IMG/VR virus record: IMGVR_UViG_2874968258_000013
Strand: one strand, 5' to 3'
Length of the DNA stretch: 48,336 nucleotides
Source: a virus
Lineage: Duplodnaviria; Heunggongvirae; Uroviricota; Caudoviricetes
The notes below the pieces were generated by a model. It searched no databases and was not told the DNA's origin. It saw nothing but the letters and a program-made list of their open reading frames with translations. A program made the translations under genes and the position numbers. Shown piece by piece: positions 4,181-48,116 of this stretch (its first letter is position 1; each line of letters starts with the position of its first letter).

Positions 4181-4630
4181 CTGCGTGTTACGTTCGCCCT
4201 GGACTGTTGCGATCGTGAAGCCATAGACTGGGCCGCAAGCACGGGAGGTTACGATAAAGCGACAGTGCAGGATGTCATGTTAGGAGCGATAGAAAAACGC
4301 TTTGGCGATAAAGTACCGGAACAGTCCATCCAGTGGCTGACAGATAACGGTTCAGCGTATAGAGCGCATGAAACACGGCAGTTCGCCAGAGAGTTGAATC
4401 TGGAGCCCTGCACAACGGCAATCAGCAGTCCTCAGAGTAATGGAATGGCAGAAAGGTTCGTGAAAACGATGAAGGAAGACTACATCGCGTTCATGCCGAA
4501 ACCGAATGTAAGAACGGCATTGCATAATCTTGCAGTGGCGATCGAACATTACAATGAAAACCATCCGCACAGTGCGCTGGGTTATCGCTCTCCGCGAGAA
4601 TATCGACGTCAGCGGGTAACGTTAACTTAA
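4181..4630 (+). pseudogene. IS2-like transposase OrfB C-terminal fragment (DDE domain 3' half)
   Basis: frame opens with [13 protein letters not shown]..., colinear with C-terminal half of IS2 InsD; no N-terminal half present. Confidence 0.6.
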
Positions 4631-5414: not shown

Positions 5415-5444
5415 ATCATCCACCCAATTGGTAATGACTCCAAC

Positions 5445-5948
5445 TTATTGATAGTGTTTTATGTTCAGATAATGCCCGATGACTTTGTCATGCAGCTCCA
5501 CCGATTTTGAGAACGACAGCGACTTCCGTCCCAGCCGTGCCAGGTGCTGCCTCAGATTCAGGTTATGCCGCTCAATTCGCTGCGTATATCGCTTGCTGAT
5601 TACGTGCAGCTTTCCCTTCAGGCGGGATTCATACAGCGGCCAGCCATCCGTCATCCATATCACCACGTCAAAGGGTGACAGCAGGCTCATAAGACGCCCC
5701 AGCGTCGCCATAGTGCGTTCACCGAATACGTGCGCAACAACCGTCTTCCGGAGACTGTCATACGCGTAAAACAGCCAGCGCTGGCGCGATTTAGCCCCGA
5801 CATAGCCCCACTGTTCGTCCATTTCCGCGCAGACGATGACGTCACTGCCCGGCTGTATGCGCGAGGTTACCGACTGCGGCCTGAGTTTTTTAAGTGACGT
5901 AAAATCGTGTTGAGGCCAACGCCCATAATGCGTGCTGTTGCCCGGCAT
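5445..5948 (-). CDS. insB: IS1 InsB (expressed as InsAB' by frameshifting)
   Basis: 167-aa ORF within IS1, overlapping insA. Confidence 0.9.
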
Positions 5949-6142
5949 CCAACGCCATTCATGGCCATATCAATGATTTTCTGGTGCGTACCGGGTTGAG
6001 AAGCGGTGTAAGTGAACTGCAGTTGCCATGTTTTACGGCAGTGAGAGCAGAGATAGCGCTGATGTCCGGCAGTGCTTTTGCCGTTACGCACCACCCCGTC
6101 AGTAGCTGAACAGGAGGGACAGCTGATAGAAACAGAAGCCAC
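5867..6142 (-). CDS. insA: IS1 InsA
   Basis: 91-aa [21 protein letters not shown]... within IS1. Confidence 0.92.
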
Positions 6143-6830
6143 TGGAGCACCTCAAAAACACCATCATACACTAAATCAGTAAGTTGGCAGCATCACCAGC
6201 CTTCTTGAGGCTACCACCTGTTTTCAGGTGTCATTCAGACGTGATTTGCCCCAGATTGGGAAAGCACGCTTTTTTCTCAGCTATCGTCCTCTTATTTTGC
6301 CGTTACATTTCTTTTTGCACTCTAATGATTAATTTACAATAATAATATCGGTAATTATTGAGTAATAATAAATTGATTATTGCAAATGTAATTTAATTCC
6401 ATCTTCGCGTTATATTCCAATCTTTAATCTCCGCATGGAACAAGTTGCATGCGTGACTATATTAAGACAACTTATAACCACCAAAACATTTGCTTTGCAA
6501 GCAAAAACAGTGACCATTGACTCTAAGAAAATTCCGATCTATTGTTAGGGTCATCAAAGTTACTTAACAGTATTCCGAAATGAAAATACAAAGCAAGCTA
6601 ATTGTCTTATTAAACATTATTATTGCATTTATATTATTTGAGCTTTTAGCTCAAAAATTTGGTTTGAGTACATTATTTTAAAGCAAGATAAACAATATCG
6701 GGCACTCTAGTTTTTATAATTAACAATTAAACGTCCATAAAATGTTATTTACTTTTCTTCGCTATTGTCATATCTTAATATAGTGGCTTACGCCACTCTA
6801 CTTTCATCACATTTTGTACGTTTATGTACT

Positions 6831-31344: not shown

Positions 31345-32250
31345 CTATATTTCCAGACATCTGTTATCACTTAACCCATTACAAGCCCGCTGCCGCAGAT
31401 ATTCCCGTGGCGAGCGATAACCCAGCGCACTATGCGGATGCCATTCGTTATAATGCTCGAACGCCTCTGCAAGGTTCTTTGCTGCCGTTAACCCGTCTGG
31501 TTTGGGCATGATACTGATGTAGTCACGCTTTATCGTTTTCACGAAGCTCTCTGCTATTCCGTTACTCTCCGGACTCCGCACCGCCGTGTTCTTCGGTTCA
31601 AGTCCCAACATCCGGGCGAACTGGCGTGTTTCATTAGCCCGGTAGCATGAACCATTATCCGTCAGCCACTCCACTGGAGACGACGGAAGATCGTTGCCGA
31701 AGCGGCGTTCCACCGCTCCCAGCATGACGTCCTGTACTGTTTCACTGTTGAAGCCGCCGGTAGTCACCGCCCAGTGCAGTGCCTCACGATCACAGCAGTC
31801 CAGCGCGAACGTGACACGCAGTCTCTCTCCGTTATCACAGCAGAACTCGAACCCGTCAGAGCACCATCGCTGATTGCTTTCTTTCACGGCCACTCTGCCT
31901 GTATGTGCCCGTTTCGATGGCGGTACAGCAGGTTTTCGCTCAAGCAACAGCGCATTCTGGCGCATGATCCGGTAAACACGTTTGGCATTGATCGCAGGCA
32001 TACCATCAAGTTCTGCCTGTCTGCGAAGCAGCGCCCATACCCGACGATAACCATACGTGGGCAGCTCTCCGATAACATGGTGTATACGGAGAAGCACATC
32101 CGTATCATCAGTGTGACGACTGCGGCGGCCATCCATCCAGTCATCGGTTCGTCTGAGAATGACGTGCAACTGCGCACGCGACACCCGGAGACAACGGCTG
32201 ACTAAGCTTACTCCCCATCCCCGGGCAATAAGGGCGCGTGCGCTATCCAC
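31345..32250 (-). CDS. insD: IS2 transposase OrfB (InsD)
   Basis: 301 aa DDE transposase, overlaps insC in -1 frame. Confidence 0.92.
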
Positions 32251-32618
32251 TTTTTTGCCCGTCCATATTCAACGGCTTCTTTGAGGAGTTCATTTTCCAT
32301 CGTTTTCTTGCCGAGCAGGCGCTGGAGTTCTTTAATCTGCTTCATGGCGGCAGCAAGTTCAGAGGCAGGAACAACCTGTTCTCCGGCGGCGACAGCAGTA
32401 AGACTTCCTTCCTGGTATTGCTTACGCCAGAGAAATAACTGGCTGGCTGCTACACCATGTTGCCGGGCAACGAGGGAGACCGTCATCCCCGGTTCAAAGC
32501 TCTGCTGAACAATTGCGATCTTTTCCTGTGTGGTACGCCGTCTGCGTTTCTCCGGCCCTAAGACATCAATCATCTGTACTCCAATGACTAGTCTAAAAAC
32601 TAGTATTAAGACTATCAC
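32208..32618 (-). CDS. insC: IS2 transposase OrfA (InsC)
   Basis: 136 aa [24 protein letters not shown]... Confidence 0.92.
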
Positions 32619-34042: not shown

Positions 34043-34501
34043 TTATTTCAGGCATTGCGTCCTGATGTATTCCTGCAGGTAGTTAACCTGCGCGGTTATC
34101 TTGTCGATTCCACTTCGGAGACGGTAATAATTGAGTTCAGCATCTGCTGTAAGTCCTGGGCTTTCTCCATCGCCCATGCCGCTGGCTCCGGTCGTTGACT
34201 TTGCACAGGTGGCGGCGACTTGCAGGCGCTTACGCCCAGCAGAAACATCAGCACGGAGACTTTCGATAGTCGCGTTAGCATCAGCAAGCTCCTTTATGTA
34301 TCTTGCGTCGAGTTCTGCTACATCACGTTGACGCTTCCGCATGTCAGCGATGGTGGCGTTCGCCTTCTCCAGTTCACTGGCCTTGTTATCGCGCTGCTCT
34401 TTGTAGGCGATTGCGTTATCACGGTAATGATTAACAGCCAATGACAGGCAGACGATGATGCAGATAACCAGAGCGGAGATAATCGCGGTTACTCTGCTCA
34501 T
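34043..34501 (-). CDS. Rz: i-spanin Rz
   Basis: 152 aa from [20 protein letters not shown]; N-terminal TM plus coiled coil; overlaps R stop. Confidence 0.88.
34096..34287 (-). CDS. Rz1: o-spanin Rz1 (embedded in Rz, +1 frame)
   Basis: 63-aa ORF with lipobox LLGVSAC and Pro-rich region nested inside Rz. Confidence 0.75.
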
Positions 34502-34995
34502 TGTTTCCCCCACAAACAGACTTCACGCTCAATCTCACGGCGAGTCATCAGTCCTTTCCATTGATTACCGCCAGCGTATGTCCAGCGCCGTAGCTGATCA
34601 CATGCGCCTTTAATATCACCCTGGTTTATTTTGCGAAGAAGCGTCGATGTTCTGAAATTGCCAGCACCCACGTTGTAGACGAACGAGTAAAGAGCGCAGC
34701 GCGTTGTTTCCGGTATATCGACTTTGATGTACGGGTTAATTTGTCTGGCGACAGTGGCAAGGTCTTTATTCAGGAGGGCTTTGCACTCTGCTTCGGTATA
34801 CGTTTTACCGGGAATGATGTCTTTTCCTGTATGCCCGTAACATACAGTCCATACACCAACTATGTCTTTGTAAGGATTATGTCTCACACCTTCCAGACCA
34901 TCGTTACCACCTGGGCCAGTGATTAACACAGATGCTATAGCAATAGCCCCGCCACCAATAGCAGCAGCAACAGCTTTTCGTAATGATGGAGGCAT
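34498..34995 (-). CDS. R: SAR endolysin (phage lysozyme, phage-21 R-like)
   Basis: 165 aa; N-terminal Gly/Ala-rich signal-anchor-release segment followed by lysozyme domain. Confidence 0.85.
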
Positions 34996-35210
34996 TATCC
35001 ACCTCTCGCAGCCTTGCGCTTATCTTCTTTAATCTTGAAATAAAGGTTTGTCAGGTACGTCAGCAGGCCAAATACCAGGCTACCCAGCACTCCAATTGCC
35101 GCCCACTGTGAGGGCGTGACTTTATCTAGCAGCTGTAAAAACCAGTACCCGGCACTACCTGCTGAGGTGCCATAGGCGACACCCGTTGTTAACTTATCCA
35201 TGGATTTCAT
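34995..35210 (-). CDS. S: pinholin (phage-21 S21-like holin)
   Basis: 71 aa [26 protein letters not shown]..., two TM segments, basic C-terminus. Confidence 0.85.
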
Positions 35211-35321
35211 AACCCCACCTCGCAGACAAAGCGGGTGTAAATTGAGGGAATACTACGAAACGTAACAGACTCGGAGTCAGTGAATAACTCAGGTATTGGG
35301 TTATCAGCTAATATCGAGACT

Positions 35322-35345
35322 CAAAAAATGGAAAAACCCGCTCGA
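35322..35345 (-). terminator. tR'-like rho-independent terminator upstream of S
   Basis: minus-strand AAACCCGCCGTCGAGCGGGTTTTT hairpin about 115 bp upstream of S start. Confidence 0.55.
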
Positions 35346-35455
35346 CGGCGGGTTTAAGCTGTGTGACGAAGTAACCACTCTTAACAGCATAACCAATTTT
35401 GGTGATGCTGCCAACTTACTGATTTAGTGTATGATGGTGTTTTTGAGGTGCTCCA

Positions 35456-35731
35456 GTGGCTTCTGTTTCTATCAGCTGTCCCTCCTGTTCAGCTACTGAC
35501 GGGGTGGTGCGTAACGGCAAAAGCACTGCCGGACATCAGCGCTATCTCTGCTCTCACTGCCGTAAAACATGGCAACTGCAGTTCACTTACACCGCTTCTC
35601 AACCCGGTACGCACCAGAAAATCATTGATATGGCCATGAATGGCGTTGGATGCCGGGCAACTGCACGCATTATGGGCGTTGGCCTCAACACGATTTTACG
35701 TCACTTAAAAAACTCAGGCCGCAGTCGGTAA
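35456..35731 (+). CDS. insA: IS1 InsA
   Basis: 91-aa ORF within IS1. Confidence 0.92.
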
Positions 35732-36153
35732 CCTCGCGCATACAGCCGGGCAGTGACGTCATCGTCTGCGCGGAAATGGACGAACAGTGGGGCTATGTCG
35801 GGGCTAAATCGCGCCAGCGCTGGCTGTTTTACGCGTATGACAGTCTCCGGAAGACGGTTGTTGCGCACGTATTCGGTGAACGCACTATGGCGACGCTGGG
35901 GCGTCTTATGAGCCTGCTGTCACCCTTTGACGTGGTGATATGGATGACGGATGGCTGGCCGCTGTATGAATCCCGCCTGAAGGGAAAGCTGCACGTAATC
36001 AGCAAGCGATATACGCAGCGAATTGAGCGGCATAACCTGAATCTGAGGCAGCACCTGGCACGGCTGGGACGGAAGTCGCTGTCGTTCTCAAAATCGGTGG
36101 AGCTGCATGACAAAGTCATCGGGCATTATCTGAACATAAAACACTATCAATAA
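35650..36153 (+). CDS. insB: IS1 InsB
   Basis: 167-aa ORF within IS1. Confidence 0.9.
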
Positions 36154-36558
36154 GTTGGAGTCATTACCCCAATTTTTTACGTACGTAAACCACTAAATGA
36201 TATTTGCGAGAATGCTACCGAGTATTGAAAACACCACTACAAATACATAAGCAAATCCCAACAAATAACCAACAAATAATTTCCAGTGTTATTTTTAGCC
36301 GGTTTAAATTGAACCTTCAAATTATAGAGCACTTATAAATAACAGCCGTTAATATAAATTGGCTAATAGATTTATTTTTATTCAGCCAAGAGCCATGAAT
36401 AGGATTCGATAGAAAAAAGTTCAGATAAAAATAGAGATCTACTTCACAAATCAAACGAGAAACCAAAACTTACATCTTGAAATAATCACATTGATTAGAT
36501 GAATATTTATCGCGCAGTGACATCATTTTTTAATAATAGTTCAAAAAAAGGGCTCACG

Positions 36559-37641
36559 ATGAAAAAATTAACAGTGGCAATTTCTGCTGTAGCTGCATCA
36601 GTACTGATGGCGATGTCTGCTCAGGCAGCTGAAATTTATAATAAAGACAGTAACAAGCTGGATCTGTACGGGAAAGTTAATGCTAAGCACTACTTCTCCT
36701 CTAATGATGCAGATGATGGTGATACTACTTATGCCCGTCTTGGCTTCAAAGGTGAAACCCAAATCAACGATCAACTGACTGGTTTCGGTCAGTGGGAATA
36801 TGAATTCAAAGGCAACCGCGCTGAATCTCAAGGTTCCTCCAAAGATAAAACCCGTCTTGCCTTCGCTGGCCTGAAATTCGGTGACTACGGCTCCATCGAT
36901 TACGGCCGTAACTACGGTGTAGCATACGACATCGGTGCGTGGACTGACGTCCTGCCAGAATTCGGTGGTGACACTTGGACTCAAACAGATGTGTTCATGA
37001 CTGGTCGCACCACTGGTGTTGCAACTTATCGTAACAACGACTTCTTTGGTCTGGTTGATGGTCTGAACTTTGCTGCTCAGTATCAGGGTAAAAATGACCG
37101 CACTGACGTAACTGAAGCTAATGGTGATGGTTTCGGTTTCTCCACTACTTATGAGTATGAAGGATTCGGTGTAGGTGCAACCTATGCTAAATCTGACCGC
37201 ACTAATAATCAGGTTATCTACGGTAACAACAGCCTGAATGCATCTGGTCAAAATGCTGAAGTATGGGCAGCTGGTCTGAAATATGATGCGAACAACATCT
37301 ATCTGGCTACCACCTATTCTGAAACCCAGAACATGACTGTTTTTGGTAATAACCATATTGCCAACAAAGCACAAAACTTCGAAGTAGTTGCACAATATCA
37401 GTTCGACTTCGGTCTGCGTCCGTCCGTTGCTTACCTGCAATCTAAAGGAAAAGACTTGGGTGCGTGGGGTGATCAGGACCTGGTTGAATATATTGATGTA
37501 GGTGCAACCTATTACTTCAACAAAAATATGTCCACTTTTGTTGATTACAAAATCAACCTGATTGATAAGAGCGATTTCACGAAAGCATCTGGCGTTGCTA
37601 CCGATGATATCGTTGCTGTAGGTATGGTTTACCAGTTCTAA
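36559..37641 (+). CDS. nmpC: prophage-encoded general porin (NmpC/Lc-like, OmpC family)
   Basis: 360 aa from [23 protein letters not shown]; 16-strand porin signature ending ...VAVGMVYQF; apparently intact coding frame. Confidence 0.88.
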
Positions 37642-37770
37642 TTTGATTACTAAAAGATATGTTGCGGGAGGCTTTGCCTCCCCAACATATAAGTGGCTCC
37701 CTCAAGCCACTTCCTTTAGGAGCACAACCTTGCTTCTAACTATATAAACCTTCTGTTATATATTACCCTT

Positions 37771-37803
37771 TATTTTTGGGGGCGTTGCAACGCCCCATTT
37801 TTA
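37771..37803. terminator. bidirectional rho-independent terminator between convergent nmpC and Q
   Basis: TTTTT-GGGGCGTTGCAACGCCCC-ATTTTT palindrome. Confidence 0.65.
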
Positions 37804-37829: not shown

Positions 37830-38213
37830 TTAATTAGAGTTATTAACAACGATATCCATCTCTAACCGGATATCTAATGCCATTAACATCCCTTCAATTA
37901 TGCCCTCAGCCTTCTGTAACCTTTTCCCGATATAACCATCAGAGCAGCAATGCTTACCTGCCAGTGACATGAATGTCATACCGACTACATAATAATCTAC
38001 TAATAAATCGTGCAAATCGCTGTTGTTCTTTTTCAGACGGGCCATGTACCCGCAAATAATCATCGCGTCATCGTCACAACATTGCGGGCGAGATTTTACT
38101 TTTGAAGTAATTAATCCCTTAAAACCGGCGGCAATGGACGACCAGGTCACATCTTCATGATTATTAGCCGCCCACGCTCCCCAACGCTCAAGAACCATCT
38201 GAATATCACGCAT
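37830..38213 (-). CDS. quuD: late gene antiterminator Q (DLP12 QuuD-like)
   Basis: 127 aa from [24 protein letters not shown]... Confidence 0.85.
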
Positions 38214-40770: not shown

Positions 40771-40932
40771 TTATGTTGCCATGCGAAGTATGCATGGCTG
40801 CATGTCTGCCTTCCATTTAAAATGGGCTAAGACCTATAACCCTAAATATTATTCTTTATTATCTTCTTTACCACTTCGGTGATGCTGCCAACTTACTGAT
40901 TTAGTGTATGATGGTGTTTTTGAGGTGCTCCA

Positions 40933-41108
40933 GTGGCTTCTGTTTCTATCAGCTGTCCCTCCTGTTCAGCTACTGACGGGGTGGTGCGTAACGGCAAAAG
41001 CACTGCCGGACATCAGCGCTATCTCTGCTCTCACTGCCGTAAAACATGGCAACTGCAGTTCACTTACACCGCTTCTCAACCCGGTACGCACCAGAAAATC
41101 ATTGATAT
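40933..41108 (+). pseudogene. insA: IS1 insA truncated by IS21 insertion
   Basis: InsA frame diverges after ...QKIID at the IS21 junction. Confidence 0.85.
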
Positions 41109-41209
41109 TGTCAGCGCCAGTGATATAAGACGGTAATTCGCCATTTGGATTGTCCGCTCCACCCAACATGTTGTTTCCTTAAGGTTCTCACACCAGAAAG
41201 GACATCAAC

Positions 41210-43179
<1,970 letters not shown>

Positions 43180-43260
43180 CGAAAGTATTTAGCGGGCATG
43201 AAAATGGCAAATAACGGTCAAACATCGTGGCGTTGACAATATGGCCATGAATGGCGTTGG

Positions 43261-43764
43261 ATGCCGGGCAACTGCACGCATTATGGGCGTTGGCCTCAAC
43301 ACGATTTTACGTCACTTAAAAAACTCAGGCCGCAGTCGGTAACCTCGCGCATACAGCCGGGCAGTGACGTCATCGTCTGCGCGGAAATGGACGAACAGTG
43401 GGGCTATGTCGGGGCTAAATCGCGCCAGCGCTGGCTGTTTTACGCGTATGACAGTCTCCGGAAGACGGTTGTTGCGCACGTATTCGGTGAACGCACTATG
43501 GCGACGCTGGGGCGTCTTATGAGCCTGCTGTCACCCTTTGACGTGGTGATATGGATGACGGATGGCTGGCCGCTGTATGAATCCCGCCTGAAGGGAAAGC
43601 TGCACGTAATCAGCAAGCGATATACGCAGCGAATTGAGCGGCATAACCTGAATCTGAGGCAGCACCTGACACGGCTGGGACGGAAGTCGCTGTCGTTCTC
43701 AAAATCGGTGGAGCTGCATGACAAAGTCATCGGGCATTATCTGAACATAAAACACTATCAATAA
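43261..43764 (+). CDS. insB: IS1 InsB (copy 3)
   Basis: 167-aa ORF in the right part of the split IS1. Confidence 0.85.
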
Positions 43765-43779
43765 GTTGGAGTCATTACC

Positions 43780-43912: not shown

Positions 43913-45160
43913 ATGGCACTGAATATTCCATTCAGAAATGCGTACTATCGTTTTGCATCCAGTTACTCATTTCTCTTTTTTATTTCCTGGTCGCTGTGGT
44001 GGTCGTTATACGCTATTTGGCTGAAAGGACATCTAGGGTTGACAGGGACGGAATTAGGTACACTTTATTCGGTCAACCAGTTTACCAACATTCTATTTAT
44101 GATGTTCTACGGCATCGTTCAGGATAAACTCGGTCTGAAGAAACCGCTCATCTGGTGTATGAGTTTCATCCTGGTCTTGACCGGACCGTTTATGATTTAA
44201 GTTTATGAACCGTTACTGCAAAGCAATTTTTCTGTAGGTCTAATTCTGGGAGCGCTCTTTTTTGGCCTGGGGTATCTGGCGGGATGCGGTTTGCTTGACA
44301 GCTTCACCGAAAAAATGGCGCGAAATTTTCATTTCGAATATGGAACAGCGCGCGCCTGGGGATCTTTTGGCTATGCTATTGGCGCGTTCTTTGCCGGCAT
44401 ATTTTTTAGTATCAGTCCCCATATCAACTTCTGGTTGGTCTCGCTATTTGGCGCTGTATTTATGATGATCAACATGTGTTTTAAAGATAAGGATCACCAG
44501 TGCGTAGCGGCGGATGCGGGAGGGGTAAAAAAAGAGGATTTTATCGCAGTTTTCAAGGATCGAAACTTCTGGGTTTTCGTCATATTTATTGTGGGGACGT
44601 GGTCTTTCTATAACATTTTTGATCAACAACTTTTTCCTGTCTTTTATGCAGGTTTATTCGAATCACACGATGTAGGAACGCGCCTGTATGGTTATCTCAA
44701 CTCATTCCAGGTGGTACTCGAAGCGCTATGCATGGCGATTATTCCTTTCTTTGTGAATCGGGTAGGGCCAAAAAATGCATTACTTATCGGTGTTGTGATT
44801 ATGGCGTTGCGTATCCTTTCCTGCGCGCTGTTCGTTAACCCCTGGATTATTTCATTAGTGAAGCTGTTACATGCCATTGAGGTTCCACTTTGTGTCATAT
44901 CCGTCTTCAAATACAGCGTGGCAAATTTTGATAAGCGCCTGTCGTCGACGATCTTTCTGATTGGTTTTCAAATTGCCAGTTCGCTTGGGATTGTGCTGCT
45001 TTCAACGCCGACTGGGATACTCTTTGACCACACAGGCTACCAGACAGTTTTCTTCGCAATTTCGGGTATTGTCTGCCTAATGTTGCTATTTGGCATTTTC
45101 TTCCTGAGTAAAAAACGCGAGCAAATAGTTATGGAAACGCCTGTACCTTCAGCAATATAG
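43913..45160 (+). pseudogene. cscB: sucrose:H+ symporter CscB with in-frame premature stop (TAA at 44198-44200)
   Basis: two in-frame ORFs (43913-44200, 44291-45160) collinear with recalled CscB; ...LTGPFMI-stop-VYEPLLQ... Confidence 0.8.
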
Positions 45161-47200: not shown

Positions 47201-47363
47201 GATAGTATATAGCGGGCAAGTTTTAGTTAATTTATCGAGGTAATATAATTTACCTCGACTCGTTTATTCTGGTATGAATATTTCGCTTTACGATCGATTT
47301 TTATCTGATGATATCATGCGGTTTTCATATACTGACTTACTGTCTTTTGGTAATGACTCCAAC

Positions 47364-47867
47364 TTATTGATAGTGTTTTATGTTCAGATAATGCCCGATG
47401 ACTTTGTCATGCAGCTCCACCGATTTTGAGAACGACAGCGACTTCCGTCCCAGCCGTGCCAGGTGCTGCCTCAGATTCAGGTTATGCCGCTCAATTCGCT
47501 GCGTATATCGCTTGCTGATTACGTGCAGCTTTCCCTTCAGGCGGGATTCATACAGCGGCCAGCCATCCGTCATCCATATCACCACGTCAAAGGGTGACAG
47601 CAGGCTCATAAGACGCCCCAGCGTCGCCATAGTGCGTTCACCGAATACGTGCGCAACAACCGTCTTCCGGAGACTGTCATACGCGTAAAACAGCCAGCGC
47701 TGGCGCGATTTAGCCCCGACATAGCCCCACTGTTCGTCCATTTCCGCGCAGACGATGACGTCACTGCCCGGCTGTATGCGCGAGGTTACCGACTGCGGCC
47801 TGAGTTTTTTAAGTGACGTAAAATCGTGTTGAGGCCAACGCCCATAATGCGTGCAGTTGCCCGGCAT
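47364..47867 (-). CDS. insB: IS1 InsB
   Basis: 167-aa ORF within IS1. Confidence 0.9.
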
Positions 47868-48061
47868 CCAACGCCATTCATGGCCATATCAATGATTTTC
47901 TGGTGCGTACCGGGTTGAGAAGCGGTGTAAGTGAACTGCAGTTGCCATGTTTTACGGCAGTGAGAGCAGAGATAGCGCTGATGTCCGGCAGTGCTTTTGC
48001 CGTTACGCACCACCCCGTCAGTAGCTGAACAGGAGGGACAGCTGATAGAAACAGAAGCCAC
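47786..48061 (-). CDS. insA: IS1 InsA
   Basis: 91-aa ORF within IS1. Confidence 0.92.
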
Positions 48062-48116
48062 TGGAGCACCTCAAAAACACCATCATACACTAAATCAGTA
48101 AGTTGGCAGCATCACC

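Follow-up and report, generated by a model that had tools for sequence, protein, structure and literature searches.

An IS1 element likely interrupting the late promoter pR' of a defective lambda-like prophage, with a predicted hybrid promoter at the junction

We analyzed a stretch of 48,336 nucleotides from the IMG/VR virus record IMGVR_UViG_2874968258_000013 (Caudoviricetes), hereafter the window, and focused on one of the copies of the insertion sequence (IS) IS1 that it carries. This element, IS1 copy 2, separates the porin gene nmpC from the lysis genes of a defective prophage. The late strand of this prophage is the minus strand, and the genes follow each other on it in the order Q, nmpC (on the opposite strand), S, R, and Rz. 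It is rather likely that IS1 copy 2 interrupts the spacer of the late promoter pR': the -35 hexamer with its palindrome and the -10 hexamer with the start site are found on opposite sides of the element, which places IS1 inside the promoter spacer. Judging from homology, pR' is located beyond nmpC, where it straddles the IS1 site, and not beside Q.

The insertion itself has a clear anatomy. IS1 copy 2 is 768 bp long (35401-36168, plus strand) and has canonical ends, with GGTGATGCTGCC... at one end and ...GGAGTCATTACC at the other. Its length and its imperfect terminal inverted repeats of about 23 bp (GGTGATGCTGCCAACTTACTGAT / GGTAATGACTCCAACTTATTGAT) are those of IS1. It encodes insA (35456-35731, 91 amino acids (aa)) and insB' (35650-36153, 167 aa), both on the plus strand and in a frameshifted tandem as in IS1, and annotations of RefSeq and of Escherichia coli genomes label the identical sequence as an IS1A-family transposase with a programmed frameshift. 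The element is 100% identical to the two other full copies in the window. It is flanked by a direct repeat of 8 bp, CCAATTTT, at 35393-35400 and 36169-36176, the right copy reading AAAATTGG on the late strand and corresponding to positions -21 to -14 of the native promoter. Target duplications of IS1 are commonly of 9 bp and at times of 8 bp; here, a repeat of 9 bp does not fit. To reconstruct the empty site, we deleted IS1 and one copy of the repeat and joined the flanks. This sequence occurs uninterrupted in 2353 of the 5426 complete E. coli genomes (top match 99.9%) and has 99.1% identity with DLP12 of K-12. Hence, the insertion is real and derived. Both junctions also occur in GCA_013147205.1 (CP049179.1), with 99.94% identity across 7 kb; none of the complete genomes in the collection of 5426 has them, and the left junction has no match in the GTDB species-representative genomes. 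The first-pass annotation of this DNA had placed an IS1 copy with an 8-bp duplication between Q/nmpC and the lysis operon, about 390 bp from the start of nmpC. The coordinates and the empty site bear this out, and the distance from the end of IS1 to the nmpC ATG (36559) is 390 bp.

What the element interrupted can be read from the empty site, whose late strand runs TTTACG, 16 nt, TATGCT, GTTAAGAGTGGTTAC, and then a hairpin. The -35 hexamer TTTACG (36189-36184, minus strand) is followed, across a 16-bp spacer, by the -10 hexamer TATGCT (35391-35386, minus strand), which aligns with the TATCAT of Sp5 and 24B. The inferred start site is an A at 35379 (minus strand), about 7 nt after the -10, and lies within a conserved initial transcribed block, GTTAAGAGTGGTTAC (35385-35371, minus strand, -6 to +9). 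A perfect 14-bp palindrome, TTTACGTACGTAAA, covers native positions -34 to -21 (36189-36176, minus strand) and is a candidate Q-binding element. In the window, the -35 and the palindrome form an orphaned upstream half of pR' (36176-36191, minus strand), homologous to pR' of phage 24B and to Sakai Sp5. The orphaned element and the conserved start block are each unique within the window. The start codon of S is at +170 from the inferred start.

The homology extends over the whole region: read on its late strand, the empty site can be aligned base for base to the pR'/qut/terminator region annotated in the Shiga toxin phage 24B and to Sakai Sp5. In the 24B record, a putative pR', qut, and terminator are annotated straight after Q; its late-promoter sequence is AGTTTACGATCGTAAAAATCTGCATATCATGATAAGAGTGGTTACATTGCCACGCAGTCGAACCCGCCGATGCGCGGGTTTTTTT, and the matching stretch of the window's empty site is GGTTTACGTACGTAAAAAATTGGTTATGCTGTTAAGAGTGGTTACTTCGTCACACAGCTTAAACCCGCCGTCGAGCGGGTTTTTCC. 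For Sakai Sp5, Sy et al. (2020, PMC7547250) determined the start of pR' by differential RNA sequencing (dRNA-seq) and, 258 nt further on, the 3' end of the RNA by Term-seq. If the start is predicted 7 nt past the TATCAT of Sp5, exactly 258 nt separate it from the end of the T-run in the second terminator (tR'). The prediction thus reproduces the published distance, so that the homologous promoter is experimentally anchored. Together with the conserved TAnnnT motif described below, homology to this mapped promoter points to a constitutive sigma-70 pR' between Q and the late genes.

To place this promoter in its family, we scanned viral contigs for the conserved block GWTAAGAGTGGTTAC and obtained 120 loci; about 110 of these belong to late regions of phages. 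Across 60 unique homologous promoters, position -12 is T in 52, and positions -11 (A) and -7 (T) are the same in all 60. This TAnnnT pattern is the signature of a -10 box. All types of the family share the region from -6 to about +50, the hairpin lies at a fixed distance from the start site throughout, and positions -18 to -13 vary within a type. The distance to the stop codon of Q, computed for the 95 loci with an identifiable Q, is at most 100 nt in 34 loci and 0.5-3 kb in the other 61, where the intervening DNA is variable: it comprises, for instance, an antisense open reading frame (ORF) in PhiR40_1 and a lipocalin gene in Lambda_2E9. In our window, the intervening gene is nmpC, a so-called moron, antisense to the late strand and situated between Q and pR'. 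With the moron inserted there, late transcription does not run antisense through nmpC. Porins and other morons that precede the promoter in this way are outside the late transcript.

The promoters of this family differ upstream, between about -35 and -19. We found four or more types of upstream element (TTTAC-N4-GTAAA; GCG-N-CGC variants; TTGTG...CAAAA; TTCGTTACGAA), every one of them palindromic and followed by an A-run. The type of palindrome agrees with the allele of Q in all 95 loci: Q is at least 70% identical to the window Q in the 45 loci with the type A palindrome, and less than 70% identical in the 50 loci with other types. Lambda_2E9 has retained a type-A element and a type-A Q despite a different downstream block. 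Since the palindrome type tracks the Q allele so closely, the palindrome at -34 to -21 is probably the element to which this Q21-family antiterminator binds, and we treat it as the candidate. In the phage 21 system, a template with positions -40 to -1 of pR'21 and the pause element is enough for the loading of Q (bioRxiv 10.1101/651190). As for the pause element of the window promoter, the invariant block from +1 to +9 (AGTGGTTAC) is at the position expected for it and shows no clear -10-like hexamer. The block from -6 to +9 may contain a sigma-dependent pause element.

IS1 may have replaced part of what it removed. Its left inverted repeat contains an outward-facing -35 box, TTGGCA (35409-35414, minus strand), 17 bp from the resident -10, and the junction reads ...AAGTTGGCAGCATCACC|AAAATTGGT|TATGCT on the late strand. 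This feature had been overlooked in the first-pass annotation. A promoter scan returned TTGGCA-17-TATGCT on the minus strand (35414-35386) with 9 of 12 matches, against 8 of 12 for the native promoter. A -35 box at 16-18 bp from a flanking -10 is the arrangement of an IS-created hybrid promoter. The IS1 inverted repeat is described as holding an outward -35 box that yields hybrid promoters in PMC8764528, which cites Prentki 1986, and IS1 generates hybrid promoters when suitably placed (PMC9330008). At the other end, the orphaned half of pR' faces the right end of IS1, where there is no -10 box. Initiation at the junction is probably kept by way of the predicted hybrid promoter.

The consequences for the late operon would follow from what lies on each side. 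The insertion duplicated native positions -21 to -14 and displaced the sequence upstream of -21, including the -35 and the palindrome TTTACGTACGTAAA, by 776 bp. The -10, the start site, the conserved block, and the hairpin stayed with S-R-Rz and the morphogenesis genes, about 25 kb, that follow. A Q of this type would bind the palindrome to load onto an RNA polymerase paused soon after initiation. The left inverted repeat of IS1 supplies a replacement -35, and the surviving -10 is at a distance of 17 bp from it. The resulting IS1/pR' hybrid promoter would be constitutive and would still fire. Its transcripts would no longer be modifiable by Q, and most would end at the hairpin, so that the lysis genes and the 25 kb of morphogenesis genes would be uncoupled from Q. 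If the palindrome is the Q-binding element, then, IS1 has probably uncoupled Q-dependent late transcription. Transcripts that start further upstream, e.g., at an RpoE-linked start near 36509, would now traverse IS1. This start is that of the K-12 DLP12 lysis cassette, described as RpoE-regulated, with a range of "-121 to +650", in PMC7918800, which cites Rueggeberg 2015. Mapping the primers given there onto the window and phage 434B puts it approximately at 36505-36545 (about 36509, minus strand). On this reconstruction, the published K-12-type start is upstream of IS1 and hence likewise severed from S. One might go further and see in this locus a natural "qut-minus" allele, in which the palindrome is the Q-binding element of the 933W/DLP12 branch of Q, the promoter is Q-blind, driven by IS1, and possibly repressible by InsA, and low, constitutive expression of S-R-Rz, independent of the phage, would be provided to the host and was maybe selected. 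We consider this extended version quite unlikely.

The hairpin downstream of the start is the sole candidate for tR' ahead of S. A terminator scan identified a terminator-like hairpin with a U-tract at 35320-35355 (minus strand), whose stem-loop (35355-35334) spans +25 to +46 and consists of an 8-bp stem and a 6-nt loop, followed by UUUUUCCAUUUUUU. Taken alone, its centroid structure has a free energy of about -12 kcal/mol, and the segment 35355-35320 is a putative intrinsic terminator ahead of the late genes. By alignment, it is homologous to the first leader hairpin downstream of pR' in 933W-type phages, which agrees with the tR'-like terminator named in the first-pass annotation. In 933W- and Sp5-type loci, this first hairpin and its T-run are found at about +25 to +55 (764-790 in the Sakai Sp5 locus, L008, and 2329-2351 in L007); there, it is either a partial terminator or has another role, e.g., in pausing or Q loading. 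The Rfam model Trp_leader gave a hit over the hairpin and the IS1 end with 28.8 bits, under its cut-off of 41 bits, which we took as chance. The comparison with uninterrupted relatives that had been proposed to locate pR' did so, as the pR' homologue was found at the insertion site, and it modifies several earlier statements. The hairpin exists, yet the gap between IS1 and its stem is 45 bp, and the 58 bp initially given reaches about mid-hairpin. The lambda geometry assumed for the region, with pR' some 200 nt upstream of tR', does not apply: the pR' homologue straddles the insertion and the hairpin is at +25 to +46. The idea that IS1 separates the late promoter from the lysis operon holds for the -35 and the palindrome, which are cut off, and fails for the -10 and the start site, which remain with the operon. 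A pR' downstream of IS1 within 35346-35400 had been named as contradicting this idea; the -10, the inferred start (35379), and the conserved block do fall in this interval, and the -35 and the palindrome are upstream of IS1.

Several points weigh against the view that IS1 split pR' and thereby disconnected the late genes from Q. The candidate palindrome is an inverted repeat, whereas the binding element of Q21 is a direct repeat, and its covariation with Q could result from physical linkage and not from function. The homologous first hairpin of Sp5 lies inside the 258-nt StxS precursor, and hence does not stop every transcript there. The K-12 start from the literature, as reconstructed from the primers in PMC7918800, is about 320 nt upstream of the proposed pR'. 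The early region of the prophage is lost, so that Q may never be made, in which case the regulatory effect is moot. Finally, the putative qut of the 24B record occupies +8 to +15, a position on the downstream side of the insertion point; if this placement is correct, Q control would survive IS1. The last point leads to a different account, in which the promoter was swapped with Q control intact: the Q-binding element would lie downstream of -21, near the start, the -35 of IS1 would be better than the weak native one, and the operon would still be inducible by Q, perhaps more so than before. In addition to the qut of 24B, this account draws on a block from -6 to +24 that is nearly invariant over all Q types, on the -10, start, block, and hairpin being untouched, and on a hybrid promoter that outscores the native one. 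According to our arithmetic, a random insertion in the 572-bp spacer would land at 16-18 bp from the -10 and in the right orientation in about 0.3% of cases, which hints at selection for a working promoter. We nevertheless find this account unlikely. An element common to Qs that are just 39-50% identical cannot account for the specificity of Q, and only the palindrome upstream of -19 is specific to the type of Q. If Q21 and lambda are a guide, the element bound by Q is upstream of the start, at some 10-30 bp upstream of the pause element, and this span includes the insertion point. Even more at odds with the data is the canonical lambda layout, with pR' and qut right after Q (37830-37640), late transcription antisense through nmpC, and IS1 as mere leader DNA read through by the Q-modified polymerase. 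Textbook cassettes do have pR' directly after Q, as do the related loci with at most 100 nt between the two (34 of 95), and phage 434B, which has an IS5 between Q and S, is viable. This IS5 is in nmpC, upstream of the proposed pR', and therefore does not discriminate between the layouts. The 190 bp that follow Q contain nothing promoter-like on the late strand: in the window, we found there no homologue of the promoter family and mainly hairpins that would terminate plus-strand (nmpC) transcription, so that this location was rejected. The homologue of the mapped pR' sits at the IS1 site instead, and relatives with other inserts also have their promoter past the insert. Hence, we regard the canonical layout as highly improbable in this prophage.

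Two other alternatives concern the consequences of the insertion. The insertion may have had no functional effect at all, because the prophage was already dead and Q unexpressed, the position of IS1 reflecting a preference for AT-rich DNA bound by H-NS. This is a serious possibility, to which we give somewhat less than even chances. The early, immunity, and replication region is absent and replaced by an IS1 with an inserted IS21-family element and a lacY pseudogene; the lysis cassette and the terminase genes are separated by an IS3-family element; the spacer between nmpC and essD is an H-NS-bound "promoter island" in K-12 (PMC3661553); and the locus was repeatedly hit by IS elements (TA8571, E. 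coli B, K-12). IS1 may, however, have inserted either before or after the decay, and the lysis genes of K-12 DLP12, itself a defective prophage, are expressed and have phenotypes (PMC7918800), so that the promoter context can matter to the host. This alternative addresses the consequence of the insertion and not its anatomy, and is in that respect compatible with an IS1 lodged in the pR' spacer. A main effect on the porin, through activation or silencing of nmpC, seems very unlikely to us. IS1 is oriented toward nmpC, which makes read-through possible, and lies within the H-NS-bound AT-rich region; nmpC is expressed in Shigella flexneri and induced anaerobically, partly via FNR (PMC4229854). 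On the other hand, a distance of 390 bp separates the element from the ATG, and the conserved block that precedes nmpC begins only at about 36222, some 50 bp beyond IS1. Direct reading of the right end of IS1 revealed a TTGGAG with no -10 box at 16-18 bp, which led us to reject a hybrid promoter facing nmpC, and the promoter scan detected no plus-strand promoter created by the insertion. The altered porin promoter proposed in the initial annotation finds no support in these data, although IS1 may act on it indirectly.

The genes around the site are intact. Q (37830-38213, minus strand) encodes a QuuD-like antiterminator of 127 aa that matches Pfam PF06530 (Phage_antitermQ) over its full length (E = 9e-52), as expected for a Q-dependent late cassette. 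It is 77-81% identical in protein sequence to the 144-aa Q of 933W-type phages and has a distant match to the Q21 structures 6P18 and 6JNX of the PDB (E = 9e-7). We searched for the Q of phage 21 itself among the fetched loci and found none with more than 36% identity. The structural data on Q21 therefore transfer to these loci by analogy only. The moron nmpC (36559-37641, plus strand) encodes an nmpC/lc-type porin of 360 aa (Porin_1, E = 3e-153). The lysis cassette comprises the holin gene S (34995-35210, Phage_holin_2_1), the lysozyme gene R (34498-34995, Phage_lysozyme), and Rz (34043-34513, Phage_lysis), all on the minus strand. The Q-porin-S arrangement is also present in the viable phages PhiR34_1, ev243, mEp332, and 434B, the last being a recombinant with the module of K-12, including the IS5 in nmpC. 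Between the stop codons of nmpC and Q, there are two GC-rich hairpins (37779-37796 and 37667-37685); the first, with its plus-strand T-run, is likely the terminator of nmpC and would also shield Q from antisense transcription.

The locus combines features of several known systems. It shares with the pR'-tR' region of the 933W and Sp5 Shiga toxin (Stx) phages (StxS; Sy et al. 2020) the TTTACG -35, the TTTAC-N4-GTAAA palindrome, the TAnnnT -10, the GWTAAGAGTGGTTAC start block, and the first hairpin, and the Qs of the two are, as mentioned, 77-81% identical. Sp5 has its promoter directly next to Q, and its mapped tR' is the second terminator, at +258. The DLP12 type, by contrast, has its promoter 1.6 kb from Q, past nmpC; it lacks both the StxS part and the second terminator, and its S gene begins at +170. 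The cassette of phage 21 (Yin et al. 2019; Shi et al. 2019) has in common with ours a PF06530 Q and a terminator that precedes the late genes, as well as a loading site close to the promoter, which is putative in ours. It differs in that its Q has about 33% identity with the window Q, its binding element is a direct repeat where our candidate is inverted, and its pR' is without the conserved block. DLP12 (qsr') of K-12 and the lc region of phage PA-2 have the same ylcG-Q-nmpC-S-R-Rz module (the K-12 empty site being the one with 99.1% identity). K-12 DLP12 has an IS5 inside nmpC and has lost its morphogenesis genes, while in the window nmpC is intact, pR' contains the IS1, and the lambda-like late region is full. 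As in the IS1 hybrid promoters of blaTEM, acrEF, and afaA (Prentki et al. 1986), the outward -35 in the inverted repeat is 17 bp from a resident -10. Unlike in these cases, the IS1 of the window, where the promoter is predicted from sequence, replaces the -35 and regulatory half of an antitermination-dependent promoter, and no silent gene is switched on.

The rest of the prophage is a mixture of complete and eroded parts. Its lambda-like late region looks complete, from the terminase to the tail fibres (about 6.2-31 kb). Beyond about 40.9 kb, nothing is left of its early, immunity, and replication region. The prophage is thus defective, and the host genome is IS-rich and probably Shigella-like. 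At the end of the early region, there is a fourth copy of IS1 (40875-41113 and 43239-43779), split by an IS21-family insert (about 41114-43238) with istA (41210-42382) and istB (42379-43179). Beside these IS elements, a LacY-type permease is encoded in two ORFs (95 aa and 289 aa, 43913-45160), i.e., a frameshifted lacY pseudogene, which is consistent with a Shigella-like host. The two other full copies of IS1 (5430-6198 and 47349-48116) are both inverted relative to IS1 copy 2, and their flanks are without matching target duplications, which suggests IS1-mediated rearrangement or deletion at the prophage ends. The minus strand at about 31345-32618 carries transposase ORFs of the IS3 family (136 aa and 301 aa; rve, HTH_21), with the lysis/KilA-N region on one side and the terminase genes on the other. 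Lying within the late operon, this element is a potential second polar block. A 285-nt inverted repeat with 74% identity (4332-4616 / 31386-31670) suggests a related IS3-family copy near the left end. Independent IS hits in the same locus comprise an IS1 about 95 bp upstream of the porin ATG in E. coli TA8571 (NZ_AP024205.1), an IS1 inside nmpC in E. coli B (REL606), and an IS5 in nmpC in K-12 and 434B.

The type of event described here, an IS landing in a promoter of a decaying prophage and making a hybrid promoter, is known, and nothing in it is categorically new. It nonetheless illustrates in a small space how the spread of IS elements disables the prophages of Shigella-like genomes: through the insertion, lysis and morphogenesis genes of about 26 kb, intact in other respects, have probably lost the connection to their sole dedicated activator. 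Useful by-products are the true position of pR' and its modular make-up in this Q family. For annotation, this means that the late promoter is to be sought away from Q, past inserted DNA, in 61 of the 95 loci, the inserted DNA being an antisense moron in the DLP12/nmpC type. The match between palindrome type and Q allele also offers a concrete candidate for the Q-binding element of the Q933 family of Stx phages, which controls the release of Shiga toxin.

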